DNA of 64,000 bases, taken from NCBI GenBank assembly GCA_052327205.1, contig CM126207.1:40114001-40178000 (forward strand). The letters run 5' to 3'. The notes under the pieces were generated by a model. It searched no databases, was not told where the DNA came from, and worked only from the letters and a program-made list of their open reading frames with translations. This stretch comes from Somniosus microcephalus (Eukaryota). The position numbers and the translations under genes are program-made. This document shows, piece after piece, positions 625 through 60,288 of this stretch (the stretch's first letter is position 1; every line of letters begins with the position of its first letter).

Positions 625-729
625 CTGTTGTTTCACTTGTTGAGGCTATAGTGGTTGAAGAAGCAGATACAGTTGTAGATGGATCTGTTGATATGCTTTG
701 TTCTGATGTTGGAGATGTTGATGATGTAG
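625..729 (-). CDS. Exon A, representative copy (unit 1), 105 nt, phase 1-1
   Basis: Minus strand: ctttctttcaCTGACatctcttttaaaatcaacAG|CT ACA TCA TCA ACA TCT CCA ... GAA ACA ACA G|GTatcc. Translates to (A)TSSTSPTSEQSISTDPSTTVSASSTTIASTSETT. Confidence 0.85.
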
Positions 730-3700
730 CTGTTGATTTTAAAAGAGATGTCAGTGAAAGAAAGCAATGCTCCTGCTGATTGCAGCATAAAGCACGTCAA
801 ATGAGAATGGTAAATTTAATGAAACGAATTAAAAAATGATCGAAATGAAAATGGTGGTTTGCTTTGATATTTATTCTGAGAGTGTTCACAATCTTAATGT
901 TGAGCACTATGCATTAAATTGCAAGTATGCTGTTACTGGAGATTTTTCTTATCAAAGTTTGCCATTACAGAGATTATCAATTTGACTGGTTTAATGTCAT
1001 TATTCACTTTACGAGGCATCAGCTCTGGACAGCAGCAGTGGCATTTAGTTTTATAAAACACTGTATTATCAACATTAATAATTGTTCCCTTCTACGATCT
1101 TGGATGTCTAGGTTGCAATAGATTATACCTGTTGATGCTGGTGATGTTGCTGTGGATGAGATCAGAGTTGTAGTTGCTTCTGTTGAAGTGCTTCCTTCTG
1201 AGGTTACAGATGATGTCAAAACTGCTAATATGTATAGAAATGTCAGTAAAACAGGGCAAAGCTCTTCTAGATGCCATCATAAATAGAGCAAACTGACCAA
1301 TAAAGCTAATGAGCTGAACTCAAACAATTTGATTGCAGTTGGTTGGCATGAATAATAATTATACAATTGTGTAATGTGGACCTGAAGTGAATGAGTTGCT
1401 TCTATTTTCCCACTGAAGGAGCCTCCATGATATTTGATGCAAGCTATCACATTAATTAAACTTTGAGCTTCTTCTCAAAGTGATCTACTTTTATACTCGT
1501 CATATCAATGATTAGAGAGAATATGGATGTGGCTGGATTAGTAAGTTTTTAAATTGTACAAGGCATAAAATCTGGAGTCAACAAGTGACTGTAAATGATG
1601 TGGCAAGAAGAACAGTCTCATCTGTGGATTGTGAATTTGAAACCATTCTGTGAGTGAGGAAAATGCGATTGGAACTTTTGATACATGTCGAAGGAATCAA
1701 AGATATTAAGGAATCAAAGATATTGATAGTTCTGTTGATGTGCTTAACAGTGATGGCTCAACTGGTGCATTGGCAATAGAAATGTAACATTATTAACAGA
1801 CATGGAACTGTGAAGGCAGAAATGGCATTTACTCTTTTGAAAAAATTGTATACAATGGTCAAGGTAAGACTAGTGTCTGTTGCTTGATTCAAAAATGAGT
1901 TATCAGCGGGAAGGTTGAACGTTGACATTTGGGATGGCATTGTGGATACCTGTTGTTTCACTTGTTGAGGCTAAAGTGGTTGAAGAAGCAGGTACAGTTG
2001 TAGATGGATCTGTTGATGTGCTTTGTTCTGATGTTGGAGATGTTGATGATGTAGCTGTTGATGTTAAAAGAGATGTCAGTGAAAGAAAGCAATGCTCCTG
2101 CTGATTGCAGCATAAAGCAAGTCAAATGAGGAAGGTAAGTTTAATGAAACGAATTAAAAACATGATCGAAATGAAAATGGTGGGTTGCTTTGATATTTAT
2201 TGTGAGCGTGTTCACGATCTTAATGTTGAGCACTATGCATTAAATTGCAAGTATGCTGTTACTGGAGATTTTTCTTATACAAAATTTTGCCATTACAGAT
2301 TTTATCAATTTCACTGGTTTAATGTCATTATTCACTTTACGAGGCATCAGCTCTGGACAGGAGCAGTGGCATTTAGTTTTATAAAAGAAAGTATTATCAA
2401 CATTAATAATTGTTCCCTTCTATGTTCTTGGATTTCTAGGTTGCAATAGATCATACCTGTTGATGCTGGTGATGTTGCTGTGGATGAGATCAGAGTTGTA
2501 GTTGCTTCTGTTGAAGTGCTTCCTTCTGAGGTTCCAGCTGATGTTGAAGCTGCTAATATGTGTAGAAATGTCAGTAAAACAGGGCAAAGCTCTTCTAGAT
2601 ACCATCATAAATAGTGCAAACTGACCAACAAAGCTAATGAGCTGAACTCAAACAATTTGATTACAGTTGGTTGGCTTGAATAATAATTATACAATTGTGC
2701 AAATTGGAACTGAAGTGAATGAGTTGCTTCTATTTTCCCACTGAAGGAGCCTTCATGATATTTGATGCAAGCTATCACATTAATTAAACTTTGAGCTTCT
2801 TATCAGAGTTATCTCTTTTCAGATGAATTATATGCATGATTAGAAAGTAAAAGAATGTGGCAGGATTAGTGAGTTTTTAAAATATACTCGGCATAAAAGC
2901 TGGAGTCAACAAGTGACTGTAAATGATGTGACAAGAAGCACAGTCACATCTGTGGATTTTGACTTAGAAACCATTCTGTGAGTGAGGAAAATGCGATTGG
3001 AACTTTTGATACATGTCGAAGGAATCAAAGATGTTGATGGTTCTGTTGATGTGCTTAACAGTGATGGCTCAACTGGTGCTTTGGCAACAGAAATGTAACA
3101 TTATTAATAGACATGGAACTGTGAAGGCACAAATGGCATTTACTCTTTTGAAAAAATTGTTTACAATGGTCAAGGTAAGACTAGTGTCTGTTGCTTGATT
3201 CAAAAGGGAGTTATCAGCGGGAAGGTTGAACGTTGACATTTGGGATGGCATTGTGGATACCTGTTGTTTCACTTGTTGAGGCTATAGTGGTTGAAGAAGC
3301 AGATACAGTTGTAGATGGATCTGTTGATATGCTTTGTTCTGATGTTGGAGATGTTGATGATGTAGCTGTTGATTTTAAAAGAGATGTCAGTGAAAGAAAG
3401 CAATGCTCCTGCTGATTGCAGCATAAAGCACGTCAAATGAGAATGGTAAATTTAATGAAACGAATTAAAACATGATCGAAATGAAAATGGTGGTTTGCTT
3501 TGATATTTATTCTGAGAGTGTTCACAATCTTAATGTTGAGCACTATGCATTAAATTGCAAGTATGCTGTTACTGGAGATTTTTCTTATCAAAGTTTGCCA
3601 TTACAGAGATTATCAATTTCACTGGTTTAATGTCATTATTCACTTTACGAGGCATCAGCTCTGGACAGCAGCAGTGGCATTTAGTTTTATAAAAGAAAGT

Positions 3701-6700
3701 ATTATCAACATTAATAATTGTTCCCTTCTATGATCTTGGATGTCTAGGTTGCAATGGATTATACCTGTTGATGCTGGTGATGTTGCTGTGGATGAGATCA
3801 GAGTTGTAGTTGCTTCTGTTGAAGTGCTTCCTTCTGAGGTTCCAGATGATGTTGAAGCTGCTAATATGTATAGAAATGTCAGTAAAACAGGGCAAAGCTC
3901 TTCTAGATACCATCATAAATAGTGCAAACTGACCAACAAAGCTAATGAGCTGAACTCAAACAATTTGATTGCAGTTGGTTGGCTTGAATAATAATTATAC
4001 AATTGTGCAAATTGGAACTGAAGTGAATGAGTTGCTTCTATTTTCCCACTGAAGGAGCCTTCATGATATTTGATGCAAGCTATCACATTAATTAAACTTT
4101 GAACTTCTTATCAGAGTTATCTCTTTTCAGATGAATTATATGCATGATTAGAGAGTAAAAGAATGTGGCAGGATTAGTGAGTTTTTAAAATATACTCGGC
4201 ATAAAAGCTGGAGTCAACAAGTGACTGTACATGATGTGAGAAGAAGCACAATCATATCTGTGGATTTTGACTTTGAAACCATTCTGTGAGTGAGGGAAAT
4301 GTGATTGGAACTTTTGATTCATGTCGAAGGAATCAAAGATGTTGATGGTTCTGCTGATGTGCTTAACAGTGATGACTCAACTGGTGCTTTGGCAATAGAA
4401 ATGTAACATTATTAACAGACATGGAACTGTGAAGGCACAAATGGCATTTACTCTTTTGAAAAAATTGTTTACAATGGCCAAGGTAAGACTAGTGTCTGTT
4501 GCTTGATTGAGAAATGATTTATCAGCGGGAAGGTTAAACGGTGACAATTGGGATGACATTGTGGATACCTGTTGTTTCACTTGTTGAGGCTAAAGTGGTT
4601 GAAGAAGCGGTTGCAGTTGTAGATGGATCTGTTGATCTGCTTTGTTCTGATGTTGGAGATGTTGATGATGTAGCTGTTGATGTTAAAAGAGATGTCAGTG
4701 AAAGAAAGCAATGCTCCTGCTGATTGCAGCATAAAGCACGTCAAATGAGGAAGGTAAGTTTAATGAAACGAATTAAAAACATGATCGACATGAAAATGGT
4801 GGGTTGCTTTGATACTTATTCTGAGAGTGTTCACGATCTTAATATTGAGTACTATGCATTAAATTGCAAGTATGCTGTTACGAGAGATTTTCTTATACAA
4901 GGTTTACCATTACAGAGATTATCAATTTCACTGGTTTAATGTCATTATTCACTTTACGAGGCATCAGCTCTGGACAGCAGCAGTGGCATTTAGTTTTATA
5001 AAACACTGTATTATCAACATTAATAATTGTTCCCTTCTACGATCTTGGATGTCTAGGTTGCAATAGATTATACCTGTTGATGCTGGTGATGTTGCTGTGG
5101 ATGAGATCAGAGTTGTAGTTGCTTCTGTTGAAGTGCTTCCTTCTGAGGTTACAGATGATGTCAAAACTGCTAATATGTATAGAAATGTCAGTAAAACAGG
5201 GCAAAGCTCTTCTAGATGCCATCATAAATAGAGCAAACTGACCAATAAAGCTAATGAGCTGAACTCAAACAATTTGATTGCAGTTGGTTGGCATGAATAA
5301 TAATTATACAATTGTGTAATGTGGACCTGAAGTGAATGAGTTGCTTCTATTTTCCCACTGAAGGAGCCTCCATGATATTTGATGCAAGCTATCACATTAA
5401 TTAAACTTTGAGCTTCTTCTCAAAGTGATCTACTTTTATACTCGTCATATCAATGATTAGAGAGAATATGGATGTGGCTGGATTAGTAAGTTTTTAAATT
5501 GTACAAGGCATAAAATCTGGAGTCAACAAGTGACTGTAAATGATGTGGCAAGAAGAACAGTCTCATCTGTGGATTGTGAATTTGAAACCATTCTGTGAGT
5601 GAGGAAAATGCGATTGGAACTTTTGATACATGTCGAAGGAATCAAAGATATTAAGGAATCAAAGATATTGATAGTTCTGTTGATGTGCTTAACAGTGATG
5701 GCTCAACTGGTGCATTGGCAATAGAAATGTAACATTATTAACAGACATGGAACTGTGAAGGCAGAAATGGCATTTACTCTTTTGAAAAAATTGTATACAA
5801 TGGTCAAGGTAAGACTAGTGTCTGTTGCTTGATTCAAAAATGAGTTATCAGCGGGAAGGTTGAACGTTGACATTTGGGATGGCATTGTGGATACCTGTTG
5901 TTTCACTTGTTGAGGCTAAAGTGGTTGAAGAAGCAGGTACAGTTGTAGATGGATCTGTTGATGTGCTTTGTTCTGATGTTGGAGATGTTGATGATGTAGC
6001 TGTTGATGTTAAAAGAGATGTCAGTGAAAGAAAGCAATGCTCCTGCTGATTGCAGCATAAAGCAAGTCAAATGAGGAAGGTAAGTTTAATGAAACGAATT
6101 AAAAACATGATCGAAATGAAAATGGTGGGTTGCTTTGATATTTATTGTGAGCGTGTTCACGATCTTAATGTTGAGCACTATGCATTAAATTGCAAGTATG
6201 CTGTTACTGGAGATTTTTCTTATACAAAATTTTGCCATTACAGATTTTATCAATTTCACTGGTTTAATGTCATTATTCACTTTACGAGGCATCAGCTCTG
6301 GACAGGAGCAGTGGCATTTAGTTTTATAAAAGAAAGTATTATCAACATTAATAATTGTTCCCTTCTATGTTCTTGGATTTCTAGGTTGCAATAGATCATA
6401 CCTGTTGATGCTGGTGATGTTGCTGTGGATGAGATCAGAGTTGTAGTTGCTTCTGTTGAAGTGCTTCCTTCTGAGGTTCCAGCTGATGTTGAAGCTGCTA
6501 ATATGTGTAGAAATGTCAGTAAAACAGGGCAAAGCTCTTCTAGATACCATCATAAATAGTGCAAACTGACCAACAAAGCTAATGAGCTGAACTCAAACAA
6601 TTTGATTACAGTTGGTTGGCTTGAATAATAATTATACAATTGTGCAAATTGGAACTGAAGTGAATGAGTTGCTTCTATTTTCCCACTGAAGGAGCCTTCA

Positions 6701-15700: not shown

Positions 15701-18700
15701 GAAATGTCAGTAAAACAGGGCAAAGCTCTTCTAGATACCATCATAAATAGGGCAAACTGACCAACAAAGCTAATGAGCTGAACTCAAACAATTTGATTAC
15801 AGTTGGTTGGCTTGAATAATAATTATACAATTGTGCAAATTGGAACTGAAGTGAATGAGTTGCTTCTATTTTCCCACTGAAGAAGCCTTCATGATATTTG
15901 ATGCAAGCTATCACATTAATTAAACATTGAGCTTCGTCTCAGAGTGATCTCCTTTTATAGTCGTCATATCCATGATTAAAGAGAATATGGATGTGGCTGG
16001 ATTAGTAAGTTTTGAAATTGTACGAGGCATAAAATCTGGAGTCAACAAGTGACTGTAAATGATGTGGCAAGAAGAACAGTCTCATCTGTGGATTGTGAAT
16101 TTGAAACCATTCTGTGAGTGAGGAAAATGCGATTGGAACTTTTGATACATGTCGAAGGAATCAAAGATATTGATGGTTCTGTTGATGTGCTTAACAGTGA
16201 TGACTCAACTGGTGCATTGGCAATAGAAATGTAACATTATTAACAGACATGGAACTGTGAAGGCAGAAATGGCATTAACTCTTTTGAAAAAATTGTTTAC
16301 AATGGTCAAGGTAAGACTAGTGTCTGTTGCTTGATTCAAAAATGATTTATCAGCGGGAAGGTTGAACGTTGACATTTGGGATGGCATTGTGGATACCTGT
16401 TGTTTCACTTGTTGAGGCTAAAGTGGTTGAAGAAGCAGGTACAGTTGTAGATGGATCTGTTGATGTGCTTTGTTCTGATGTTGGAGATGTTGATGATGTA
16501 GCTGTTGATGTTAAAAGAGATGTCAGTGAAAGAAAGCAATGCTCCTGCTGATTGCAGCATAAAGCAAGTCAAATGAGGAAGGTAAGTTTAATGAAACGAA
16601 TTAAAAACATGATCGAAATGAAAATGGTGGGTTGCTTTGATATTTATTGTGAGCGTGTTCACGATCTTAATGTTGAGCACTATGCATTAAATTGCAAGTA
16701 TGCTGTTACTGGAGATTTTTCTTATACAAAATTTTGCCATTACAGATTTTATCAATTTCACTGGTTTAATGTCATTATTCACTTTACGAGGCATCAGCTC
16801 TGGACAGGAGCAGTGGCATTTAGTTTTATAAAAGAAAGTATTATCAACATTAATAATTGTTCCCTTCTATGTTCTTGGATTTCTAGGTTGCAATAGATCA
16901 TACCTGTTGATGCTGGTGATGTTGCTGTGGATGAGATCAGAGTTGTAGTTGCTTCTGTTGAAGTGCTTCCTTCTGAGGTTCCAGCTGATGTTGAAGCTGC
17001 TAATATGTGTAGAAATGTCAGTAAAACAGGGCAAAGCTCTTCTAGATACCATCATAAATAGTGCAAACTGACCAACAAAGCTAATGAGCTGAACTCAAAC
17101 AATTTGATTACAGTTGGTTGGCTTGAATAATAATTGTACAATTGTGCAAATTGGAACTGAAGTGAATGAGTTGCTTCTATTTTCCCACTGAAGGAGCCTT
17201 CATGATATTTGATGCAAGCTATCACATTAATTAAACTTTGAGCTTCTTATCAGAGTTATCTCTTTTCAGATGAATTATATGCATGATTAGAAAGTAAAAG
17301 AATGTGGCAGGATTAGTGAGTTTTTAAAATATACTCGGCATAAAAGCTGGAGTCAACAAGTGACTGTAAATGATGTGACAAGAAGCACAGTCACATCTGT
17401 GGATTTTGACTTAGAAACCATTCTGTGAGTGAGGAAAATGCGATTGGAACTTTTGATACATGTCGAAGGAATCAAAGATGTTGATGGTTCTGTTGATGTG
17501 CTTAACAGTGATGGCTCAACTGGTGCTTTGGCAACAGAAATGTAACATTATTAATAGACATGGAACTGTGAAGGCACAAATGGCATTTACTCTTTTGAAA
17601 AAATTGTTTACAATGGTCAAGGTAAGACTAGTGTCTGTTGCTTGATTCAAAAAGGAGTTATCAGCGGGAAGGTTGAACGTTGACATTTGGGATGGCATTG
17701 TGGATACCTGTTGTTTCACTTGTTGAGGCTATAGTGGTTGAAGAAGCAGATACAGTTGTAGATGGATCTGTTGATATGCTTTGTTCTGATGTTGGAGATG
17801 TTGATGATGTAGCTGTTGATTTTAAAAGAGATGTCAGTGAAAGAAAGCAATGCTCCTGCTGATTGCAGCATAAAGCACGTCAAATGAGAATGGTAAATTT
17901 AATGAAACGAATTAAAACATGATCGAAATGAAAATGGTGGTTTGCTTTGATATTTATTCTGAGAGTGTTCACAATCTTAATGTTGAGCACTATGCATTAA
18001 ATTGCAAGTATGCTGTTACTGGAGATTTTTCTTATCAAAGTTTGCCATTACAGAGATTATCAATTTCACTGGTTTAATGTCATTATTCACTTTACGAGGC
18101 ATCAGCTCTGGACAGCAGTAGTGGCATTTAGTTTTATAAAAGAAAGTATTATCAACATTAATAATTGTTCCCTTCTATGATCTTGGATGTCTAGGTTGCA
18201 ATAGATTATACCTGTTGATGCTGGTGATGTTGCTGTGGATGAGATCAGAGTTGTAGTTGCTTCTGTTGAAGTGCTTCCTTCTGAGGTTCCAGATGATGTT
18301 GAAGCTGCTAATATGTATAGAAATGTCAGTAAAACAGGGCAAAGCTCTTCTAGATACCATCATAAATAGTGCAAACTGACCAACAAAGCTAATGAGCTGA
18401 ACTCAAACAATTTGATTGCAGTTGGTTGGCTTGAATAATAGTTATACAATTGTGCAAATTGGAACTGTAGTGAATGAGTTGCTTCTATTTTCCCACTGAA
18501 GGAGCCTTCATGATATTTGATGCAAGCTATCACATTAATTAAACTTTGAACTTCTTATCAGAGTTATCTCTTTTCAGATGAATTATATGCATGATTAGAG
18601 AGTAAAAGAATGTGGCAGGATTAGTGAGTTTTTAAAATATACTCGGCATAAAAGCTGGAGTCAACAAGTGACTGTACATGATGTGAGAAGAAGCACAATC

Positions 18701-45700: not shown

Positions 45701-48700
45701 TTGATGCTGGTGATGTTGCTGTGGATGAGATCAGAGTTGTAGTTGCTTCTGTTGAAGTGCTTCCTTCTGAGGTTCCAGATGATGTTGAAGCTGCTAATAT
45801 GTGTAGAAATGTCAGTAAAACAGGGCAAAGCTCTTCTAGATACCATCATAAATAGTGCAAACTGACCAACAAAGCTAATGAGCTGAACTCAAACAATTTG
45901 ATTGCAGTTGGTTGGCTTGAATAATAATTATACAATTGTGCAAATTGGAACTGAAGTGAATGAGTTGCTTCTATTTTCCCACTGAAGAAGCCTTCATGAT
46001 ATTTGATGCAAGCTATCACATTAATTAAACTTTGACCTTCTTCTCAGAGTGATCTCCTTTTATAGTCGTCATATCCATGATTAGAGAGAATATGGATGTG
46101 GCTGGATTAGTAAGTTTTTAAATTGTACGAGGCATAAAATCTGGAGTCAACAAGTGACTGTAAATGATGTGGCAAGAAGAACAGTCTCATCTGTGGATTG
46201 TGAATTTGAAACCATTCTGTGAGTGAGGAAAATGCGATTGGAACTTTTGATACATGTCGAAGGAATCAAAGATATTGATGGTTCTGTTGATGTGCTAAAC
46301 AGTGATGGCTCAACTGGTGCATTGGCAATAGAAATGTAACATTATTAACAGACATGGAACTGTGAAGGCAAAAATGGCATTTACTCTTTTGAAAAAATAG
46401 TTTACAATGGTCAAGGTAAGACTAGTGTCTGTTGCTTGATTCAAAAATGATTTATCAGCGGGAAGGTTGAACGTTGACATTTGGGATGGCATTGTGGATA
46501 CCTGTTGTTTCACTTGTTGAGGCTAAAGTGGTTGAAGAAGCAGGTACAGTTGTAGATGGATCTGTTGATGTGCTTTGTTCTGATGTTGGAGATGTTGATG
46601 ATGTAGCTGTTGATGTTAAAAGAGATGTCAGTGAAAGAAAGCAATGCTCCTGCTGATTGCAGCATAAAGCACGACAAATGAGGAAGGTAAGTTTAATGGA
46701 ACAAATTAAAAACATGATCGAAATGAAAATGGTGGGTTGCTTTGATATTTATTGTGAGCGTGTTCACGATCTTAATGTTGAGCACTATGCATTAAATTGC
46801 AAGTATGCTGTTACTGGAGATTTTTCTTCTACAAAATTTTGCCATTACAGATTTTATCAATTTCACTGGTTTAATGTCATTATTCACTTTACGAGGCATC
46901 AGCTCTGGACAGCAGCAGTGGCATTTAGTTTTATAAAAGAAAGTATTAACAACATTAATAATTGTTCCCTTCTATGATCTTGGATTTCTAGATTGCAATA
47001 GATTATACCTGTTGATGCTGGTGATGTTGCTGTGGATGAGATCAGAGTTGTAGTTGCTTCTGTTGAAGTGCTTCCTTCTGAGGTTCCAGATGATGTTGAA
47101 GCTGCTAATATGTATAGAAATGTCAGTAAAACAGGGCAAAGCTCTTCTAGATACCATCATAAATAGTGCAAACTGACCAACAAAACTAATGAGCTGAACT
47201 CAAACAATTTGATTACAGCTGGCTGGCATGAATAATAATTATACAATTGTGCAAATTGGAACTGAAGTGAATGAGTTGCTTCTATTTTCCCACTGAAGGA
47301 GCCTCCGTGATATTTGATGCAAGCTATCACATTAATGAAACTTTGAGCTTCTTATCAGAGTTATCTCTTTTCCGATGAATTATATGCATGATTAGAGAGT
47401 AAAAGAATGTGGCAGGATTAGTGAGTTTTTTAAATATACTAGGCATAAAAGCTGGAGTCAACAAGTGACTGTACATGATGTGACAAGAAGAACAGTCTCA
47501 TCTGTAGATTGTGAATTTGAAACCATTCTGTGAGTGAGGAAAATGTGATTGGAACTTTTGATACATGTCGAAGGAATCAAAGATATTGATGGTTCTGTTG
47601 ATGTGCATAACAGTGATGGCTCCACTGGTGCATTGGCAATAGAAATGTAACATTATTAACAGACATGGAACTGTGAAGGCAGAAATGGCATTAACTCTTT
47701 TGAAAAAATTGTTTACAATGGTCAAGGTAAGACTAGTGTCTGTTGCTTGATTCAAAAATGATTTATCAGCGGGAAGGTTGAACGTTGACATTTGGGATGG
47801 CATTGTGGATACCTGTTGTTTCACTTGTTGAGGCTAAAGTGGTTGAAGAAGCAGGTACAGTTGTAGATGGATCTGTTGATGTGCTTTGTTCTGATGTTGG
47901 AGATGTTGATGATGTAGCTGTTGATGTTAAAAGAGATGTCAGTAAAAGAAAGCAATATTCCTGCTGCTTGCAGCATAAAGCACGTCAAATGAGAATGGTA
48001 AATTAAATGAAACAAATTAAAACATGATCGAAATGAAAATGGTGGGTTGCTTTGATAGTTATTCTGAGAGTGTTCACGATCTTAATGTTGAGCACTATGC
48101 ATTAAATTGCAAGTATGCTGTTACTGGAGATTTTTCTTATCAAAATTTGCCATTACAGAGATTATCAATTTCACTGGTTTAATGTCATTATTCACTTTAC
48201 GAGGCATCAGCTCTGGACAGCAGCAGTGGCATTTAGTTTTATAAAAGAAAGTATTATCAACATTAATAATTGTTCCCTTCTATGATCTTGGATGTCTAGG
48301 TTGCAATAGATTATACCTGTTGATGCTGGTGATGTTGCTGTGGATGAGATCAGAGTTGTAGTTGCTTCTGTTGAAGTGCTTCCTTCTGAGGTTCCAGCTG
48401 ATGTTGAAGCTGCTAATATGTATAGAAATGTCAGTAAAACAGGGCAAAGCTCTTCTAGATACCATCATAAATAGTGCAAACTGACCAACAAAGCTAATGA
48501 GCTGAACTCAAACAATTTGATTACAGTTGGTTGGCTTGAATAATAATTATACAATTGTGCAAATTGGAACTGAAGTGAATGAGTTGCTTCTATTTTCCCA
48601 CTGAAGAAGCCTTCATGATATTTGATGCAAGCTGTCACATTAATTAAACATTGAGCTTCTTCTCAGAGTGATCTCCTTTTATAGTCGTCATATCCATGAT

Positions 48701-51700
48701 TAAAGAGAATATGGATGTGGCTGGATTAGTAAGTTTTTAAATTGTACGAGGCATAAAATCTGGAGTCAACAAGTGACTGTAAATGGTGTGGCAAGAAGAA
48801 CAGTCTCATCTGTGGATTGTGAATTTGAAACCATTCTGTGAGTGAGGAAAATGCGATTGGAACTTTTGATACATGTCGAAGGAATCAAAGATATTCATGG
48901 TTCTTTTGATGTGCTTAACAGTGATGACTCAACTGGTGCATTGGCAATAGAAATGTAACATTATTAACAGACATGGAACTGTGAAGACAGAAATGGCATT
49001 TACTCTTTTGAAAAAATTGTTTACAATGGTCAAGGTAAGACTAGTGTCTGTTGCTTGATTCAAAAATGATTTATCAGCGGGAAGGTTGAACGTTGACATT
49101 TGGGATGGCATTGTGGATACCTGTTGTTTCACTTGTTGAGGCTAAAGTGGTTGAAGAAGCAGGTACAGTTGTAGATGGATCTGTTGATGTGCTTTGTTCT
49201 GATGTTGGAGATGTTGATGATGTAGCTGTTGATGTTAAAAGAGATGTCAGTGAAAGAAAGCAATGCTCCTGCTGATTGCAGCATAAAGCACGTCAAATGA
49301 GAATGGTAAATTTAATGAAACGAATTAAAACATGATCGAAATGAAAATGGTGGGTTGCTTTGATATTTATTCTGAGAGTGTTCACAATCTTAATGTTGAG
49401 CACTATGCATTAAATTGCAAGTATGCTGTTACTGGAGATTTTTCTTATCAAAGTTTGCCATTACAGAGATTATCAATTTCACTGGTTTAAAGTCATTATT
49501 AATTTTTCGAATCACCAGCTCTGGACAGCAGCAATGGCATTTAGATTTATGAAAGAATGTATTATTGTAGTGTATGTGCTTCAAGTCAGAACTACTTTTT
49601 ACAGCTCCTGTATACTGTAGTACCGGCAGTGACCACACCGGTATATAAGCTGTGCGCATGCCTCTGTACCCCAGTCTAGAGATTACCCTCATCCAGTAAA
49701 GACCTGTTATTTGTTTATGTACAGCATCCGTGTAATTATTTATCCACTGAACCACGGATCTAACAGTGGCGACGAGTGTTGAGGCGAATCTACCTGCAAC
49801 ATAAAAAAATATATAGTCGAGTCCAGGAACACGGGCGTCGACCGTGAGCAACCGCCCAGCAGTCAGGCAGAGATCCATCTTCGCTGGGGAGGCTGTGGAG
49901 AGCCGGGCTTGGTTCCCCAGCCACAACGAGCAGTAAGAGACTGACGACAGGTCCAGAGCAGACCCTTCCCGAGCAGCGGCGGCTGGAGCCGACTGACGGC
50001 AGAGAGAGAGAGCCGGCCAGCGTCGACGGGGTAAGAAAGAGGGTGAAGAGAGCAGGGCGCAGCCGGGGGTTGATCACCGAGCGGCGTCGAGGAAAAATAC
50101 TGCAAACCGGAGAGAGAGAGGGTAAGAAAGAGCCGGGTTCTAGACTGAGCGGCGTTGAAAAATATCAAGAGAAGAACGCGCAGAGCACAGCCAGGGATCA
50201 CGGGCTGATCAGGGTCCGTGGGCGAAGCAAGGGGAGACGCCATTGAGCCGCGGAGAAGCAGGGAGAGCGCGGGAGACGCCATTGAGCCGCGGAGAAGCAG
50301 GGAGAGTGCGGGAGGCGCCAGTGAGCCGCGGAGAAGAAGGAAGAGCGTGGGAGACGCCATTTTGCAAAGCCGCAGCAGAGAAGACGGGCGAGCACGGGAA
50401 GGAAGGAAAGCGCGGGAGACGCCATTTTGTGCCCGCGGAGAAGAAGGGGAAGCGCGGGAGGCGCCAGTGGTGATAGTTAACGCACAACCAAGGATGCCGA
50501 AGAGTGGCAGTATCTCTACGTTCGACAATGAAGTCGAAGATTGGGCGACATATGTGGAACGTATTGAGGTGTACTGCAGGGCGAATGAAGTGCCAGATGC
50601 TAATAAAGCACTGGTTCTGTTAAATTCCATGGGTGCAAAAACTTATGGGTTACTGTGAAATCTAATAACCCCAGAGAAGCCAGTAAACATGAATTTTGAA
50701 AGCATAGTAGAAATCCTACAGGACCACTTAAACCCCACACCGCTGCTGATAGCAGAACGATTTAAGTTCCATAAAAGGAACCAACACAAAGATGAAAGCA
50801 ATGCTGAGTACCTAACGGAATTGCGCAAGCTATCGAAATACTGCCAGTTTGGAGCGGGACTAGCAGACACGTTAAGGGACAAGTTTGTGTGTGGGCTTCA
50901 AAGTGAAGGAACCCAGAAACGGCTTCTATCAGAAAAGGACATTACGCTGGACAAAGCTTTCAGTATGGCAGTATCACACGAAGCAGCCGCAAGGGGCGCT
51001 GCAGAGATACAATGGAGACCGCAAGAATATGGCACCAACGAAATGACCTATGGAACAGGGAAGTGCTATCGCTGCGGCAGAACAACACATGACCAGAAAG
51101 ATTGTTGGTTCAAGGACCAAGTGTGCAGACAGTGTGGGAAAGCAGGACACATAGCAAGAATCTGCAGGTCTGGGAAGAAAACCAACAGTAAGAAATCTCC
51201 ACAGGAGAAGTACAAAAAGGTACACCAGGTGATGGACAGTGGTTCAGACGAACAGAAAAGTGACACAGACTCCGGAAGCAAGGAGCTGGGTTGTCTGAAA
51301 CTACATAATGTAACCGAAATGGAGGATCACCAGACTATCTGGGTTACACTCAAGATAGATGGAGTCCAAGTGGAAATGGAATTGGACACAGGGTCAGCTC
51401 TAACAGTCATAAATCAAAGAGACTACAAGCAGCTATTTTCACACATACCCTTGAAAGCTACAGAGATTGTCTTGAAGACGTATACGGGGCAAAAAGTCTA
51501 CCCCAAAGGAAAAATAAGGGTGAAAGTGACATATAAAGGTCAGGAAATACCTAAAATGGATATATATGTATTGACAAATGGAGGACCACCACTGCTAGGA
51601 TGTGAATGGATCCGGAAGATACTTTTAGATTGGCATTCCATACAGGCACTGAAGGTGGAGGCCAAAAAGGATGACGACGTCACACCTGGACGACTGTCAA

Positions 51701-54700
51701 AAATGCTAACTGACGCAAAAGAAGTGTTCCAGGAGGGACTAGGAACACTAAAAGGAATAACAGCAACAATTAAAATAGTGGATAATGCAAGCCCAAAGTT
51801 TCTGAAGGCCAGACCAGTGCCTTATGCGATCAGACCAGCAGTTGAAGCAGAGCTGGAAGGGTTGGAACGTTCAGGAGTACTGTCCAAAGTGGACTGGAGT
51901 GAGTGGGCTACACCCATCGTTCCTGTAATGAAGAGGTCGTTGAGTAATACGCCTGGGGAACCAAGGAAGGTCCGCCTCTGTGGGGATTTTAAGGTGACAG
52001 TGAACCCGGTCCTTCACACGGTGCAATATCCGCTTCCACAAATTGAGGATATTTCGCCTCGCTATCTGGTGGTAAACGCTTCACAAAAATTGATCTAGCC
52101 CAGGCGTACTTGCAAATGGAGGTAGAAGAAGCTTCGAAACATTACCTTACGATCAACACCCATAAAGGTCTGTATCAATACAACCGGCTGGTGTTTGGAG
52201 TAGCCTCAGCTCCGGCTATCTGGCAAAGGGCGATGGATCAGGTCCTGCAAGGGATTCCAGGGACCCAGTGTTATTTGGACGACATCTTGGTCACGGGCGA
52301 AAATGACGGTGATCACCTCGCTAACTTGGAGAAGGTGCTCGCCAGATTAAAGGAATATGGGCTACGAGCTAATCGCCACAAGTGCAAGTTTTTCCAGAAA
52401 CAGATCTCATATTGCGGCCACGTCATCGATGAAGAGGGGTTATATAAGTCCCCTGACAAGATAGAGGCAGTTGTCAAGGCTCCAGCACCGGAAAATGTGT
52501 CACAACTGAGGTTGTTCCTCGGGCTGGTAAACTATTACCACAAGTTCTTACCAAATTTGTCTACGGTATTACACCCGCTGAACACCCTACTGCTAACAGG
52601 GGTACCATGGAAGTGGGATGACGAATGTAGACGAGCTGTCCAGAAGTGTAAAGAATTGATCACATCAAAAGAGGTGCTGGCCCATTTCAACCCAGCACTA
52701 CCAATTCGTTTGGCATGTGATGCATCACCCTACGGCATTGGAGCGGTGCTGTCGCACAAATTCCCAGACGGGTTGGAGAGGCCAGTAGCCTTTGCGTCTC
52801 GGTCATTAACCTCAGCCGAGCGCAACTACGCCCAGATTGACAGGGAGGCCCTCAGCCTAGTATGGGGAGTAAAAAAATTCAACCACTATCTGCATGGACA
52901 GAAGTTCACCTTGCTGACTGACCACCAACCACTTGTCTCCATCTTTAATCCTAAGAAGGGCGTGCCAGTAATGACTGCACAGCGGTTACAAAGATGGTCC
53001 CTGTTTCTAGGGGCGAATCAATATGAAATAGAATATAAAGGCACGAGACAGCATGGAAACGCTGATGGGCTATCGCGCCTGCCACTGCCTACTGTGGAGG
53101 AAGCACCAGCAGTGGACCCTATCGAGATATTTTATTCGTCGATAATTGAACGATTGCCAGTAACAAATGCGGATATAGAGGAGACCCGCAATGATCCGAC
53201 GCTGTCACGGGTATATGAATTGACGGTGAGGGGATGGCCAGCACATGGCGACTCACTGTTGCCAGCATTCTCATCCAGAAGAGAACAGCTGTCAGTATGC
53301 CAGGGGACAGTGATGTGTGGATCCAGAGTGGTGATTCCACCCAAGTTAAGGGAGAGAGTGCTAAATGAGCTACATGAAGGTTATCTGGGGGGAGTGAAAA
53401 TGAAAAGCCTAGCTAGGGCTTATGTGTGGTGGCCGGGAATCGATCAACAAATCGAAGACCTAACTAAGAGCTGCTTAGGATGCCAGAAAGTCCAAAATGC
53501 ACCACCACATGCCCCTCTACACCCATGGGAGGGGCCCTCCTCTCCATGGCAACGGGTGCACATTGATTTCGCTGGTCCATTCATGGACTCACTGTTCTTA
53601 ATAGCAGTGGATGCTCATTCAAAGTGGCCTGAGGTGATAAAGATGTCTTCAACCACTACAGAGAAAACGATTGCAGTCCTACGGACCATATTTGCCAGAA
53701 ACGCGTTGCCAGAGCAGATCTGCTCTGATAATGGACCACAGTTTGTGTCCGACGAGTTCCTAAAATTCATGAAAAGGAATGGGGTAAGGCATTGCACATC
53801 CGCCCCGTATCATCCAGCCACCAATGGATTGGCTGAGAGGTTCGTACAAACCTTTAAGAAGGCGATAAAGGCCATGTGCGACGAGGAAATTCCACTACAG
53901 CATAAGATGGACAATTTCTTATTAGCCTACCGAAACGCGACACATGCAGTTACCAACCAGACCCCGGCCATGATGTTCTTTAACCGAAGGTTGAGATCTC
54001 GTCTGGACTTGCTCAGACCAAATGTGCGAAGAAATGTTGAGGACAAACAATTCCAGCACATCAACAAGAAGCCGACAAGGAGCTTCAATGTAGGGCAACC
54101 AGTCTTGGCCCGGGACTATCGAACAGAGAAGTGGCAACCCGGAACGATATGTACAAGGCAGGGGCCATTAATGTACACAGTGGATGTCGGGGAGAACATT
54201 GTGAGACGCCACGTCGATCAGATCTTAGCATCACAGGAATGCATCAACCCCATGTCTCGAGTACCTGGGGATGAACCCGACATACCGGTAGTATCTTCTT
54301 CAGACCCAGTAGCAGTGGAACCCGATGAACTACCCGATGAAAGGGGGTCAGAATCGCCTCTGCAACAAGAACAAGAACCTCCGGAAAGGCGCTATCCCGA
54401 AAGGGTCAGGAAGCCGCCCCAAAGACTGAATCTATAAATGGACTTTTGTTATTGAATGTACATGTAAAAATGTAATTGTTATTTGAATATTAAGGGGGTA
54501 TTATTAATCTAAAAAGGGAGGAATTGTAGTGTATGTGCTTTAAGTCAGAACTACTTTTTACAGCTCCTGTATACTGTAGTACCGGCAGTGACCACACCGG
54601 TATATAAGCTGTGCGCATGCCTCTGTACCCCAGTCTAGAGATTACCCTCCTCCAGTAAAGACCTGTTACTTGTTTATGTACAGCATCCGTGTAATTATTT

Positions 54701-57700
54701 ATCCACTGAACCACGGCTCTAACAATTATCAACATTAATAATTGTTCCCTTCTATGATCTTGGATTTCTAGGTTGCAATAGATTATACCTGTTGATGCTG
54801 GTGATGTTGCTGTGGATGAGATCAGAGTTGTAGTTGCTTCTGTTGAAGTGCTTCCTTCTGAGGTTCCAGCTGATGTCGAAGCTGCTAATATGTACAGAAA
54901 TGTCAGTAAAACAGGGCAAAGCTCTTCTAGATAACATCATAAATAGTGCAAACTGACCAATAAAGCTAATGAGCTGAACTCAAACAATTTGATTACAGCT
55001 GGCTGGCTTGAATAATAATTATACAATTGTGTAATTTGGAACTGAAGTGAATGAGTTGCTTCTATTTTCCCACTGAAGGAGCCTCCATGATATTTGATGC
55101 AAGCTATCACATTAATTAAACTTTGAGCTTCTTATCAGAGTTATCTCTTTTCAGATGAATTGTATCCATGATTAGAGAGTAAAAGAATGTGGTAGGATTA
55201 GTGAGTTTTTAAAATATACTAGGCATAAAAGCTGGAGTCAACAAGTGACTGTAAATGATGTGACAAGAAGAACAGTCACATCTGTGGTTTGTAACTTTGA
55301 AACCATTCTGTGAGTGAGGGAAATGCGATTGGAACATTTGATACATGTCGAAGGAATCAAAGATGTTGATGGTTCTGCTGATGTGCTTAACAGTGATGGC
55401 TCAACTGGTGCTTTGGCAATAGAAATGTAACATTATTAACAGACATGGAACTGTGAAGGCACAAATGGCATTTACTCTTTTGAAAAAATTGTTTACAATG
55501 GTCAAGGTAAGACTAGTGTCTGTTGCTTGATTCAAAAATGAATTATCAGCGGGAAGGTTGAACGTTGACATTTGGGATGGCATTGTGGATACCTGTTGTT
55601 TCACTTGTTGAGGCTAAAGTGGTTGAAGAAGCAGTTACAGTTGTAGATGGATCTGTTGATATGGTTTGTTCTAATGTTGGAGATGTTGATGATGTAGCTG
55701 TTGATGTTAAAAGAGATGTCAGTGAAAGAAAGCAATGCTCCTGCTGATTGCAGCATAAAACACGTCAAATGAGAATGGTAAATTTAATTAAACGAATTAA
55801 AAACATGATCGAAATGAAAATGGTGGGTTGCTTTGATATTTATTCTGAGAGTGTTCACGATCTTAATGTTGAGCACTATGCATTAAATTGCAAGTATGCT
55901 GTTACTGGAGATTTTTCTTATACAACATTTGCCATTACAGAGATTATCAATTTCACTGGTTTAATGTCAATATTCACTTTACGAGGCATCAGCTCTGGAC
56001 AGCAGCAGTGGCATTTAGTTTTATGAAAGAAGGTATTATCAACGTTAATAAATGTTCCCTTCTATGATCTTGGATTTCTAGGTTGGAATAGATTATACCT
56101 GTTGATGCTGGTGATGTTGCTGTGGATGAGATCAGAGTTGTAGTTGCTTCTGTTGAAGTGCTTCCTTCTGAGGTTCCAGCTGATGTCGAAGCTGCTAATA
56201 TGTATAGAAATGTCAGTAAAACAGGGCAAAGCTCTTCTAGATACCATCATAAATAGTGCAAACTGACCAACAAAGCTAATGAGCTGAACTCAAACAATTT
56301 GATTACAGTTGGTTGGCATGAATAATAATTATACAATTGTGCAAATTGGAACTGAAGTGAATGAGTTGCTTCTATTTTCCCACTGAAGGAGCCTCCATGA
56401 TATTTGATGCAAGCTATCACATTAATTAAACTTTGAGCTTCTTATCAGAGTTATCTCTTTTCAGATGAATTGTATCCATTATTAGAGAGTAAAAGAATGT
56501 GGCAGGATTAGTACGTTTTAAAAATATACTAGGCATAAAAGCTGGAGTCAACAAGTGACTGTACATGAACTGACAAGAAGAACAGTCACATCTGTGGTTT
56601 GTGCATTTGAAACCATTCTGTGAGTGAGGGAAATGTGATTGGAACTTTTGATACATGTCGAAGGAATCAAAGATGTTGATGGTTCTGCTGATGTGCTTAA
56701 CAGTGATGGCTCAACTGGTGCTTTGGCAATAGAAATGTAACATTATTAACAGACATGGAACTGTGAAGGCACAAATGGCATTTACTCTTTTGAAAAAATT
56801 GTTTACAATGGTCAAGGTAAGACTAGTGTCTGTTGCTTGATTCAAAAATGATTTATCAGCGGGAAGGTTGAACGTTGACATTTGGGATGGAATTTGGATA
56901 CCTGTTTCACTTGTTGAGGATAAATTGGTTGAAGAAGCAGTTACAGTTGTAGGTGGATCTGTTGATGTGCTTTGTTCTGATGTTGGAGATGTTGATGATG
57001 TAGCTGTTGATGTTAAAAGAGATGTCAGTGAAAGAAAGCAATGCTCCTGCTGATTGCAGCATAAAGCACGTCAAATGAGGAAAGTAAGTTTAATGAAACG
57101 AATTAAAAACATGATCGAAATGAAAATGGTGGGTTGCTTTGATATTTATTCTGAGAGTGTTCACGGTCTTAATGTTGAGCACTATGCATTAAATTGCAAG
57201 TATGCTGTTACTGGAGATTTTCCTTATACAAAGTTTGCCATTACAGAGACTATCAGTTTCACTGGTTTAATGTCATTATTCACTTTACGAGGCATCAGCT
57301 CTGGACAGCAGCAGTGGCATTTAGTTTTATAAAAGAAAGTATAATCAACATTAATAATTGTTCCCTTCTATGATCTTGGATTTCTAGGTTGCAATAGATT
57401 ATACCTGTTGATGCTGGTGATGTTGCTGTGGATGAGATCAGAGTTGTAGTTGCTTCTGTTGAAGTGCTTCCTTCTGAGGTTCCAGCTGATGTCGAAGCTG
57501 CTAATATGTAGAGAAATGTCAGTAAAACAGGGCAAAGCTCTTCTAGATACCATCATAAATAGTGCAAACTGACCAACAAAGCTAATGAGCTGAACTCAAA
57601 CAATTTGATTACAGCTGGTTGGCATGAATAATAATTATACAATTGTGTAATTTGGAACTGAAGTGAATGAGTTGCTTCTATTTTTCCACTGAGTTTGCCT

Positions 57701-59335
57701 CCACGATATTTGATGCAAGCTATCACATTAATTAAACTTTGAGCTTCTTATCAGAGTTATCTCTTTTCAGATTAATTATATCCATGATTAGAGAGTAAAA
57801 GAATGTGGCTGGATTAGTGAGTTTTTAAATGGTAGTAGGCATAAAATCTGGAGTCAACAAGTGACCGTAAATGATGTGGGAAGAAGCACAGTCACATCTG
57901 TGGATTGTGAATTTGAAACCATTCTGTGAGTGAGGAAAATGCGATTGGAACTTTTGATACATGTCGAAGGAATCAAAGATGTTGATGGTTCTGCTGATGT
58001 GCTTAACAGTGATGGCTCAACTGGTGCTTTGGCAATAGAAATGTAACATTATTAACAGACATGGAACTGTGAAGGCACAAATGGCATTTACTCTTTTGAA
58101 AAAATTGTTTACAATGGTCAAGGTAAGACTAGTGTCTGTTGCTTGATTGAGAAATTATTTATCAGCGGGAAGGTTGAACATTGACATTTGGGATGGCATT
58201 GTGGATACCTGTTGTTTCACTTGTTGAGGCTAAAGTGGTTGAAGAAGCAGGTACAGTTGTAGATTGATCTGTTGATGTGCTTTGTTCTGATGTTGGAGAT
58301 ATTGATGATGTAGCTGTTGATGTTAAAAGAGATGTCAGTGAAAGAAAGCTAAATTTAATGAAATGAATTAAAAACATAATCGACATGAAAATGGTGGGTT
58401 GCTTTGATATTTATTATCAGAGTGCTCATGATGTCAATATGGAGCACTATGCATTAAATTGCAAGTATACTGCTGCAGGAGATTTTTCTTATACAAAGTT
58501 TACCATTACAGAGATTATCAATTTCACTAGTTTAAAGTCATTATTAATTTTTCGAATCACCAGCTCTGGACAGCAGCAATGGCATTTAGATTTATGAAAG
58601 AAAGTATTATCAACATTAATAATTGGTCCCTTCTATGATCTTGGATTTCTAGGTTGCAATAGATTATACCTGTTGATGCTGGTGATGTTGCCGTGGATGA
58701 GATCAGAGTTGTAGTTGCTTCTGTTGACGTGCTTCCTTCTGAGGTTTGAGATGATGTCGAAGCTGCTAATATGTATAGAAATGTCAGTAAAACAGGGCAA
58801 AGCTCTTCTAGATACCATCATAAATAGTGCAAACTGACCAACAAAGCTAATGAGCTGAACTCAAACAATTTGATTACAGTTGTGTTGGTACGAATAATAA
58901 TTATACAATTGTGTAATTTGGGACTGAAGTGAATGAGTTGCTTCTATTTTCCCACTGAAAGTGCCCCCATGATATTTGATGCAAGCTCTCACATTAATTA
59001 AACTTTGAGCTTCTTATCAGAGTTATCTCTTTTCAGATGAATTATATCCATGATTAGAGAGTAAAAGAATGTGGCAGGATTAGTGAGTTTTTAAAATATA
59101 CTAGGCATAAAAGCTGAAGTCAACAAGTGACTGTACATGAAAAAGTTGTTTACAATGGTCAAGGTAAGACTAATGTCTGTTGCTTGATTGAAAATTATGA
59201 ATCAGCGGGATATTTCAACGTTGACAATTAGGATCGCAGTGTGCATACCTGTTTCATTGGTCGAAGAAGCAGTTACAGTTGTAGATGGATCTGTTGATAT
59301 GCTTTGTTCTGATATTGGAGATGTTGATGATGTAG
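625..59335 (-). CDS. Partial spliced gene: mucin-like Ser/Thr/Pro-rich (PTS) domain built from a repeated exon pair B+A; 5' and 3' parts lie outside the window
   Basis: Exon A (105 nt) low coordinates: 625,1950,3261,4569,5895,7206,8514,9840,11151,12452,13763,15089,16397,17708,19016,20325,21634,22935,24246,25557,26866,28174,29483,30794,32102,33413,34721,36032,37340,38648,39959,41267,42575,43886,45194,46502,47813,49121,55593,56902(102 nt),58209,59249(87 nt). Exon B (93 nt) low coordinates: 1129,2457,3765,5074,6402,7710,9019,10347,11655,12959,14268,15593,16904,18212,19521,20830,22138,23442,24753,26062,27370,28679,29990,31298,32609,33917,35228,36536,37844,39155,40463,41771,43082,44390,45698,47009,48317,54789,56099,57405,58670. 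All are phase 1-1 and AG/GT flanked, with no in-frame stop seen. Spliced unit: ASTSAGTSEGSTSTEATTTLISSTATSPAST-ATSSTSPTSEQSTSTDPSTTVPASSTTLASTSETT. Confidence 0.8.
1129..1221 (-). CDS. Exon B, representative copy (unit 1), 93 nt (96 nt if the upstream TAG of TAGCAG is used), phase 1-1
   Basis: Minus strand: tttaCTGACatttctatacatatTAGCAG|TT TTG ACA TCA TCT GTA ACC TCA GAA GGA ... GCA TCA ACA G|GTataa. Translates to (V)LTSSVTSEGSTSTEATTTLISSTATSPAST. Confidence 0.85.
49566..49765 (+). repeat. 5' LTR (200 bp)
   Basis: TGTAGT...TAACA with a TATATAA box and an AGTAAA polyA-like signal. Four mismatches to the 3' LTR by manual alignment. Confidence 0.97.
49767..49776 (+). promoter_or_regulatory. 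Primer binding site, probably tRNA-Ser(GCU)
   Basis: TGGCGACGAG lies 1 nt after the 5' LTR and is complementary to ...CUCGUCGCCA, the 3' end of vertebrate tRNA-Ser(GCU) as recalled. Confidence 0.8.
50232..50467 (+). repeat. 39-bp tandem repeat in the Gypsy 5' leader
   Basis: GGGAGACGCCATTGAGCCGCGGAGAAGCAGGGAGAGCGC-type units start at 50232, 50271, 50310 and 50349, with degenerate copies near 50414 and 50456. Confidence 0.85.
50494..54437 (+). pseudogene. gag-pol polyprotein of the Gypsy element, with a premature stop and a frameshift
   Basis: Gag begins MPKSGSISTFDNEVEDW, with an in-frame TGA at 50656-50658. It has two CCHC knuckles (CYRCGRTTHDQKDC, CRQCGKAGHIARIC) and protease LDTGS. A 1-bp deletion at ~52052-52054 breaks RT; restoring it gives IEDIFASLSGGKRFTKIDLAQAY. 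Downstream are RT YLDD, RNase H CDAS, and integrase HIDFAG/SDNG/AERFV, with the HHCC second His replaced by Tyr. Confidence 0.93.
54511..54523 (+). promoter_or_regulatory. Polypurine tract
   Basis: AAAAAGGGAGGAA immediately upstream of the 3' LTR. Confidence 0.9.
54525..54724 (+). repeat. 3' LTR (200 bp)
   Basis: Direct repeat of 49566-49765. Confidence 0.97.
59249..59335 (-). CDS. Exon A, most upstream copy, 87 nt (in-frame, 18 nt shorter)
   Basis: AG|CT ACA TCA ... TCT TCG ACC AAT GAA ACA G|GTatgc. Frame and both splice sites are kept despite divergence. Confidence 0.75.
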
Positions 59336-59655
59336 CTGTTGATGTTAAAAGAGATGTCAGTGAAAGAAAGCAATGCTCCTGCTGATTGCAGCATAAAGCA
59401 CATCAAATGAGGAAGGTAAATTTAATGAAACGAATTAAAAACATGATCGACGTGAAAATGTTGTGTTATTTTGATACTTATTCTGAGAGTGTTCTTGATC
59501 TTAATTGTATTAAATTGCATGTACGCTGTTACTGGAGATTTTTCTTATACAAAGTTTACCATTATGGAGATTATCAATTTCTCTGATTTAATGTCATTAT
59601 TTACTTTTTGAGGCATCAGCTCTGGACAGCAGTGGTGGCATTTATTTTTATGAAA

Positions 59656-60117
59656 TAGGATGGCGGGACTGTCGTATGAGAAGAGATTGAGTAAAATAGG
59701 CCTGTATTGTATTAAAATCAGAAGAATGAAAGGGGATCTCATTGAAGCATGCAAAATTATTACAGGGCTTGATAGGGTGGGTGCTGGGAGAATGTTTCCC
59801 TTGGCTGGGGAATCTAGAGCCACGGGCCACAGCCTCAGGATAAAGGGTAGTCCATTCAGGACTGAGATGAGAAGAAATTTCTTCACACAGAGGGTGGTGA
59901 ATCTTTGGAATTCTCTACCCCAGAGGGCTATGGAGGCTCAGTCATTGGGTATATTCAAAACAGAAGTCAATAAATTTCTGACTAGTAAGAGCATCAAGGG
60001 ATATGGCGATAGGGTCAGTGAATGGAGTTGAGGCAGAAGATCAGCCAAGATCTTATTGAATGGCGGAACAGGCTCGAAGGGCCGAATGGCCTACTCTTGC
60101 TCCTATTTCTTATGTTC
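59656..60117 (+). mobile_element. 5'-truncated CR1-type LINE (ORF2 C-terminus, 3' UTR and tail)
   Basis: ORF 59660-60031 (GLSYEKRLSKIGLY...RRMKGDLIE...FFTQRVVNLWNSLP) is typical of the CR1 ORF2 end. The tail is TTCTTATGTTCTTATG. A flanking duplication TTATGAAA (59648-59655 and 60118-60125) overlaps the tail. Confidence 0.92.
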
Positions 60118-60195
60118 TTATGAAAGAAAGTATTATCAACATTAGTAATTTTTCCTTTCTATGATCTTGGGTTTCTAGATTGCAATAAATTATTC

Positions 60196-60288
60196 CTGTC
60201 GATGCTGGTGATGTTGCTGTGGATGAGATCAGAGTTGTATTTGCTGCTGTTCAAGTGCTTCCTTCGGAGGTTCCAGATGAAGTTGAAG
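60196..60288 (-). pseudogene. Dead terminal copy of exon B (pseudo-exon)
   Basis: In-frame TGA at 60251-60253 (TCA>TGA), and the donor is mutated from GT to GA (position 60194). Confidence 0.8.

Follow-up and report, generated by a model that had tools for sequence, protein, structure and literature searches.

The 64,000-nucleotide window analysed here, from Somniosus microcephalus (GenBank assembly GCA_052327205.1, contig CM126207.1, positions 40,114,001 to 40,178,000; G000:C6:40114001-40178000), carries on its minus strand an array of ~1.31-kb cassettes (625..60288), each comprising an exon A, an exon B and a pseudo-exon C. We propose, with a probability of roughly 0.8, that this array codes for the N-terminal stalk of a membrane mucin of the MUC4 type, lengthened by the amplification of frame-neutral cassettes. 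An initial annotation, made from the letters of the sequence, had read the 1.3-kb repeat as a coding array with whole exon-plus-intron cassettes as the unit of expansion, and both ideas were borne out. The coding interpretation rests on the open state of A and B as against the decay of C in the same units, on the exon-restricted depth and junction-matching contig ends of a probable RNA run (X1), and on the exons of a recognizable gene that flank the array. Both array and gene exceed the two edges of the window, and positions outside it are given as contig position minus 40,114,000. The host genome is 6.4 Gb in size and the nearest protein relatives of the locus come from sharks and rays.

A motif scan of the window detected 84 branch-point matches on the minus strand, 42 for A and 42 for B in strict alternation, and all of them are in phase 1-1, as had been predicted for both exons. 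Forty-one of the 42 A exons are intact, i.e. open with AG/GT, and every B exon is open, 40 of them being 105 nt long and the other two 102 and 87 nt, lengths that stay in frame. The predicted total of 83 exons was therefore right, although the annotated split of 42 A and 41 intact B was the wrong way round. When joined, these 83 exons translate into 2,733 amino acids without a single stop (roughly 2,700 had been estimated), with 32.7% threonine, 31.0% serine and 5.7% proline. A mucin PTS (proline, threonine and serine) domain is defined in the available part of PMC4948705 by a Ser+Thr content of at least 40%, with proline often above 5%, and the array, with 63.7% Ser+Thr and 5.7% proline over its 2,733 residues, has this composition. 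In addition, the best open AG..GT segment of one unit contains 68% Ser+Thr, whereas none of 500 dinucleotide shuffles reached 50% (maximum 45%).

The array was also predicted to run past the left edge of the window, and it does so with 11 A and 11 B copies (-62..-13,847, minus strand), followed, beyond the end of the main array and a 23-kb pile of mobile elements, by a further single A/B pair at about -37.5 kb. This last pair lies within a minus-strand segment (-37,446..-44,339) that also holds a C copy with a CAG/GT donor and the diverged terminal exons B′, with a weak donor, and C′, of 78 nt. The whole array in the assembly, with its flanks, thus comprises 53 intact A and 54 B exons, 107 in all (107 of the 108 A/B copies are open with AG/GT), and translates into 3,526 amino acids, or 3,579 if a longer form of A is used, with no cysteine encoded. 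The longer form arises from a tandem acceptor at A, TAG-CAG in 52 of 54 copies and TAG-TAG in the other two, which the initial annotation had overlooked. In a typical A exon (47009..47101, minus strand, phase 1-1) the distal AG gives the annotated 93 nt and the upstream AG gives 96 nt (to 47104); a typical B exon (47813..47917, minus strand, phase 1-1) has 105 nt. At the 5′ end of the array the outermost A copy (60196..60288, minus strand) is dead, with an in-frame TGA and a GA donor, and the first intact B copy (59249..59335, minus strand) is 87 nt long, 18 nt short but in frame. The other shortened B copy (56902..57003, minus strand) has a 3-nt in-frame deletion.

The units are approximately 94–100% alike and show a higher-order pattern, in that those three apart are the most similar, with 36.8 differences as against 65.6 between neighbours, and 19 against 78 at the 3′ end. 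Such a three-unit pattern is as expected from unequal crossing-over or gene conversion. Some units at this spacing are identical (0 differences), as they might be if mis-assembly of a shorter array had inflated the copy number. We consider this extremely unlikely, however, as units differ by an average of 37–66 substitutions that fall into a structured pattern, A and full-length B exons each occur in 13 distinct sequences, the region is free of N, and the array contains a unique insertion. This insertion, also overlooked previously, is a 5.16-kb long terminal repeat (LTR) retrotransposon in one A-B intron (49564..54724, plus strand), with 202-bp terminal repeats that are 98% alike and open reading frames of 479 and 796 amino acids, gag- and pol-like as judged by eye. 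Related LTR copies lie close by this young element (49,564-54,724).

Every unit also contains a third Ser/Thr-rich segment, the 60-nt C (e.g. 16149..16208, minus strand, with a weak donor), which had likewise escaped notice and which has decayed. Eighteen of 54 C copies are broken (36 unbroken), as a result of a 17-nt duplication, the loss of either splice dinucleotide (GT or AG) or a stop, compared with one of 108 A/B copies. As copies in an array are not independent, the number of distinct lesions is the fairer measure, and here there are at least four in the 60 nt of C as against two in the 198 nt of A/B, both in the terminal copy. C is thus a dead passenger exon in each cassette. In an alignment of 50 units, diversity was 0.022 for A, 0.024 for B, 0.036 for C and 0.049 for introns, and variable sites numbered 31 of 201 in A/B as against 265 of 1110 in introns (Fisher p 0.008; 42 of 1,311 circular shifts were equally low). 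Among the same units there were seven indels outside A/B (2, 1, 1, 45, 1, 17 and 7 nt), mostly of frame-breaking length, and one inside (3 nt); the exonic ones are all in frame.

To examine splicing, we aligned four runs to the unit at 15400-16710. The summed depth of X1 was 13,752–53,396 in the three bins over A and 3,330–17,513 in the three bins over B, compared with 1,482 at the B edge and 40–535 in the 23 non-exon bins; exon C, where depth was at intron level, is not included. The loose ends of X1 contigs also matched the junctions proposed earlier: those at the 3′ border of A carried the start of B (three contigs), those at the 5′ border of B the end of A (four contigs) and those at the 3′ border of B the start of A preceded by CAG (eight contigs). 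This extra CAG, absent from the predicted B-A junction, indicates that the upstream AG of the tandem acceptor is used and that A is 96 nt rather than 93 nt in X1. By comparison, run X4, whose kind is unknown and which covers introns, was flat at 205–919 without junction-matching ends. These data make it probable that, in the related species from which X1 (a probable RNA run) derives, splicing joins the A and B exons.

The search for flanking minus-strand exons suggested by the initial annotation was also successful, and signal peptide, EGF, VWD and transmembrane exons were found, together with NIDO, AMOP and C8. On the 5′ side, a predicted signal peptide is encoded by a first coding exon 17.6 kb upstream of the array (77,941..77,866, minus strand; G000:C6:40191866-40191941), which was located by its likeness to the signal exon of a neighbouring paralog (see below) and is the sole signal-peptide-like phase-1 exon in 300 kb upstream; searches with the N-terminal parts of homologues and scans for Ser/Thr-rich exons had missed it. 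No Ser/Thr-rich exon of convincing quality was found between this exon and the array. On the 3′ side, the first cysteine-rich exon (EGF1, -48,933) matches shark proteins in four of four candidates at 64–69%, two of these being named ‘mucin-4-like’, and tblastn of shark proteins on 664 kb revealed a collinear minus-strand series, on the same strand as the array and in compatible phase. This series consists of EGF exons (-48,933..-91,802), a module 1 of NIDO, AMOP-like, VWD and C8 domains with further EGFs (-98,880..-169,532), a second PTS in a single exon of ~1 kb (-194,060..-195,079, minus strand; 339 amino acids, 57% Ser+Thr, acceptor uncertain), a diverged module 2 of NIDO-AMOP-VWD-C8 (-197,155..-228,186), and EGF, membrane-proximal and transmembrane exons (-229,227..-249,728), with the hydrophobic transmembrane exon at -249.6 kb. 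The predicted N-terminal PTS is divided over 107 exons and the second PTS is of the single-exon kind. Of the 56 exon-like matches, one has an internal stop, in sequence running into an intron.

In Pfam scans of single exons, NIDO and VWD scored above the cut-off in both modules, EGF was also matched, and module 1 gave a C8-3_MUC4 match. The AMOP of module 2 stayed below the cut-off (E 7e-4) and that of module 1, without a Pfam match, is assigned by alignment. A GDPH motif is present at the start of VWD in both modules. Gel-forming mucins (MUC2/5/6/19 and MucXS) are recognized by three N-terminal VWD-C8-TIL units, a C-terminal cystine knot and the lack of a transmembrane segment; here no VWD exon was found between the signal exon and the array, and a transmembrane exon is present. 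Pfam detected no SEA domain in the one membrane-proximal exon scanned, nor in the related proteins P0003 and P0021, and some distant relatives list PF01390 (SEA). The FN3 exons that lie between the PTS and EGF1 in bamboo-shark and catshark gene models (P0003/P0006) were not found in this gene (L005:1067-5661). Judged by the gene models of relatives and the single set of transmembrane exons here, both modules appear to form one transcript. The one candidate for a signal exon of its own ahead of the second PTS, at -178,337, was rejected, since it has no cleavage-like end and lies within a duplicated block.

Several features were noted beside these exons. Between the modules (-191,299..-178,325) are partial duplicates, 97% and 91% identical, of the EGF exons at -154.8..-165.9 kb, which are either extra exons or pseudo-exons. 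Inside the 23-kb gap of the array is a single intact EGF exon whose splice sites are good (L003:5827-5952; -24,173..-24,048). Over 619 bp it shares 96% identity with one member of a distant EGF array, and for this reason we rejected it as a native part of the gene; it was probably transposed from there and could be spliced in frame. The distant array, ~1.7 Mb away on the minus strand (G000:C6:41,808,497-42,555,556), repeats in tandem a calcium-binding EGF exon of 126 nt and is larger than the mucin arrays, with a spacing of about 1.9 kb in its most uniform part, at least 40 matching places and 953 candidates. In a 200-kb sample 45 of 47 copies were open with a GT donor, and the array may be a gene whose EGF repeats number in the hundreds. 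There are also two strongly skewed tracts of simple repeats, one of 4.6 kb within the mucin gene (L005:6398-10000 with L004:1-986) and one of 6 kb upstream of it (G000:C6:40,199,940-40,206,066). Further upstream is a tandem segmental duplication of ~51 kb (G000:C6:40,254,006-40,347,887; 98–99.5% identical), inside which no exon of the mucin gene was found.

The repeats themselves have relatives in another shark. The bamboo-shark gene model P0006 contains eight full A-like repeats (17–21 of 30 residues identical) that alternate with B-like ones and are joined to the same EGF chain, and the likeness to A exceeds that of shuffled sequences (90, compared with a maximum of 75). The earlier expectation that annotation would miss such an array was thus only partly right, as database gene models of other sharks (P0006 and P0005) do carry repeats of this kind.

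A number of observations weigh against our interpretation. That X1 is RNA is a guess, and the run is from another species (listed intron pieces are about 86–97% identical); the table of joints for unit 15400-16710 lists no spliced joint, and the A-B junction has 9 nt of microhomology. Run X7 yielded no junction and just 36 reads, which share few start points, some of them within an intron, and run X8 gave no reads on the array. EGF1 and C′ had zero depth in all four runs, despite the depth of X1 on A/B, a hole which is unexplained and of a sort that proves nothing, and these runs, in which EGF1 itself is uncovered, revealed no junction between it and the array; nor did any between the array and the signal exon appear in the alignments, which covered one unit, the terminal exons and EGF1. 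Near B′, a second alignment covering the terminal exons and EGF1, swamped by mobile-element reads, gave an X1 depth of 165. The splice sites of the array are weak by simple scoring, and the likeness to B in P0006 is barely above that of a composition shuffle (93, compared with 89). Variants among exon copies comprise 29 non-synonymous, five synonymous and no stop changes (of 374, 179 and 35 possible); the absence of stops is by itself non-significant, with about two expected. The synonymous/non-synonymous test hence gives no support to constraint on A/B at the amino acid level, which we do not claim: what has been kept is the frame and the composition, not the sequence.

This last result would also suit a non-coding satellite, derived from an old piece of a mucin gene and amplified neutrally in an intron, whose frames are open simply because the copies are young, as would the high similarity of the units and the 5′ end, damaged by insertions and with a dead first A. 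Such an origin is nevertheless very unlikely, since C, of the same units and age, is broken in a third of its copies, no exonic indel breaks the frame, the depth of X1 and its junction ends track the predicted exon borders, and A-like repeats persist in the bamboo-shark gene model. Somewhat less improbable, but still unlikely, is that the exons are spliced and yet a typical mRNA uses few of the 107 copies, or yields a shorter secreted product or a transcript that stops short of the EGF/NIDO exons, so that the giant stalk is rarely made. The uncovered EGF1 and C′ exons, one X1 contig joining the end of A to the start of A, the weak splice sites and the mobile-element pile that splits the main array from the last units could all be explained in this way. 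However, a depth of tens of thousands on A/B fits many copies better, although summed contig depth is a poor measure; nearly all A/B copies remain open while C decays, which implies selection on most copies or very recent homogenization; and in gene models from other sharks the repeats are connected to the EGF chain. We therefore retain the interpretation of the array as the stalk of a membrane mucin, a stalk that is likely to be about 3,500 residues long and is predicted from its composition to be O-glycosylated.

The relationship of the gene to MUC4 was assessed with a midpoint-rooted tree of 38 rows without a mammal, built from three genomic modules together with 33 proteins that were selected out of 121 for their taxonomic spread. 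Module 2 clusters with module 2 of Callorhinchus and with frog, crocodile and bird MUC4 (100/100), and module 1 with modules from sharks, lungfish, coelacanth, amphibians and jawless fish in a clade without amniote members. Module 1 is nearer to the paralog than to P0006, perhaps as a result of conversion, and orthology to P0006 consequently rests on the EGF chain and the repeats. The order PTS-EGF-module-PTS-module is also found in stingray and salamander gene models, a lamprey model has two modules with a PTS between them, and the two-module layout as such occurs in models from stingray, frogs, salamanders and lamprey (P0021, P0122, P0124, P0125 and P0126 have it). The half formed by the single-exon PTS and module 2 (-228,186..-194,060), through its grouping with tetrapod MUC4, suggests that amniote MUC4 may correspond to the C-terminal half of a double-module gene. 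The sole neighbour examined, an ACK/TNK2 CRIB exon, lies at C6:39,528,441, 45 kb beyond the transmembrane exon of the paralog, and the available part of PMC10153415 places MUC4, MUC20 and TNK2 at one locus at human 3q29. Regarding expression, the accessible text of PMC13558645 describes a gene labelled muc4 as a marker of mucosal cells in dogfish skin, with the paralog not specified, and the main text of a shark skin proteome, in the portion available, does not name mucin-4 (PMC10707392).

The tandem paralog starts at -363,553 and has its own signal exon and PTS array (-427,717..-369,792; L067-L073), which consists of 38 phase-1 exons of 102 nt encoding an acidic repeat. Twenty-nine of these exons lie in units of 1,212-1,213 bp that differ by 0.6% (99.4% alike). 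Within the unit examined, 113 nt match the B region at 69% identity but have lost the donor GT, and this dead B-like segment suggests that both arrays derive from one multi-exon PTS region. The two would then have amplified different cassettes, each with a dead exon. The half of the main gene with the single-exon PTS and the second NIDO-AMOP-VWD has no counterpart in the paralog. We do not claim homology of the paralog exon to a Stegostoma repeat, the likeness of the peptides being at shuffle level (61, compared with 60).

Taken together, these results suggest a mechanism in which a cassette of two live exons, a dead exon and their introns was amplified and homogenized by unequal crossing-over or gene conversion, which would account for the three-unit higher-order repeat. 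As all exons are in phase 1-1 and have lengths divisible by three, gain, loss or skipping of cassettes keeps the frame, and selection would act on the open frame and the splice sites, not on the amino acid sequence. In its mature form the product would be a membrane glycoprotein of type I. Mucin stalks rise about 0.25 nm per residue, and MUC4 is shed by cleavage at its GDPH site; the predicted stalk would accordingly extend roughly 0.9 μm in the epithelial glycocalyx and might be shed at the GDPH site as in MUC4. We can also envisage, as a tentative and rather doubtful extension, that the array is a splicing-tunable ruler, cells skipping cassettes to set a micrometre-scale stalk length within one animal, and that an ancient mucin had two modules, of which amniote MUC4 retains the C-terminal half, whereas the N-terminal half that it lost has kept regrowing giant stalks by exon-cassette amplification, independently in each paralog.

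In mammalian mucins, stalk length varies through repeats inside one large exon. The present locus points to an alternative, the amplification of whole exon-plus-intron cassettes. Its exon count is some nine times that given for chicken Muc13, neighbouring paralogs would each have undergone such an expansion independently, and the main gene also has a single-exon PTS of the conventional kind. The locus also serves as a warning that some kilobase-period ‘satellites’ in shark genomes may be coding. A comparable genetic design exists in LPA, where kringle IV type 2 is a two-exon-plus-intron cassette in tandem and variable number, but which encodes folded kringle domains of a plasma protein and no PTS stalk.

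With regard to the literature, we found no description of the array of this gene, in a search that was weak on subscription papers and excluded supplements. The precedents named in the initial annotation, MUC19 and the Xenopus integumentary mucins, could not be confirmed in this search, which returned no description of a MUC19 with 182 exons; the closest documented cases in the texts available are chicken Muc13 (PMC1552070) and frog MucXS (PMC5789918). In the available part of PMC1552070 (Lang, Hansson, Samuelsson 2006), the PTS of chicken Muc13 consists of near-identical exons, one per repeat, control of length by splicing is proposed, and the layout, similar in zebrafish Muc13, is called possibly ancestral. 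As is proposed for the shark gene, chicken Muc13 is a membrane mucin whose PTS is split into near-identical repeat exons that are spliced together. Unlike it, Muc13 is of the SEA type and has at least 12 repeats of 20 amino acids, with an assembly gap and one exon per repeat, whereas the shark gene combines NIDO-AMOP-VWD with 107 exons, two live and one dead exon per cassette, a higher-order repeat and about 3,500 amino acids. With this locus the old proposal that PTS length is set by splicing becomes directly testable. Xenopus tropicalis Otogl/MucXS, as described in the accessible part of PMC5789918, likewise has a central mucin domain that is spread over multiple exons and comprises dozens of repeats (34 PTS and 39 Cys-rich), but it is a secreted gel-forming VWD/cystine-knot mucin with Cys-rich spacers, whereas the shark array is free of cysteine and probably belongs to a membrane mucin.

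The domain order given for amniote MUC4 in the available text of PMC1552070 is PTS, AMOP, VWD, EGF and transmembrane segment. The shark gene shares with amniote MUC4 the series NIDO-AMOP-VWD(GDPH)-C8-EGF-transmembrane and the TNK2 neighbour, its module 2 falls with frog, crocodile and bird MUC4 in the tree, and a conventional single-exon PTS stands ahead of that module, whereas the sampled bird MUC4 proteins have no equivalent of its extra N-terminal half (exon-cassette PTS, EGF chain and module 1). A larger ancestral gene, half of which gave rise to MUC4, is suggested by this locus. Gene models called ‘mucin-4-like’, ‘fibrillin-1-like’ or uncharacterized from sharks, rays, amphibians and lamprey (P0003, P0005, P0006, P0008, P0021, P0122-P0127) have homologous exons, mostly at 60–90% tblastn identity, and most have PTS repeats at the N-terminus; in contrast with the present array, they are predictions, often partial, in which the N-terminal PTS of sharks and rays reaches at most about 600 amino acids. 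A multi-exon PTS is in itself already known, from the available accounts of chicken Muc13 and frog MucXS. What is new here is the mucin family in which it occurs, its scale, a cassette of two exons that carries a passenger, the fact that a paralog has expanded in parallel, and the presence of both PTS designs in one gene.

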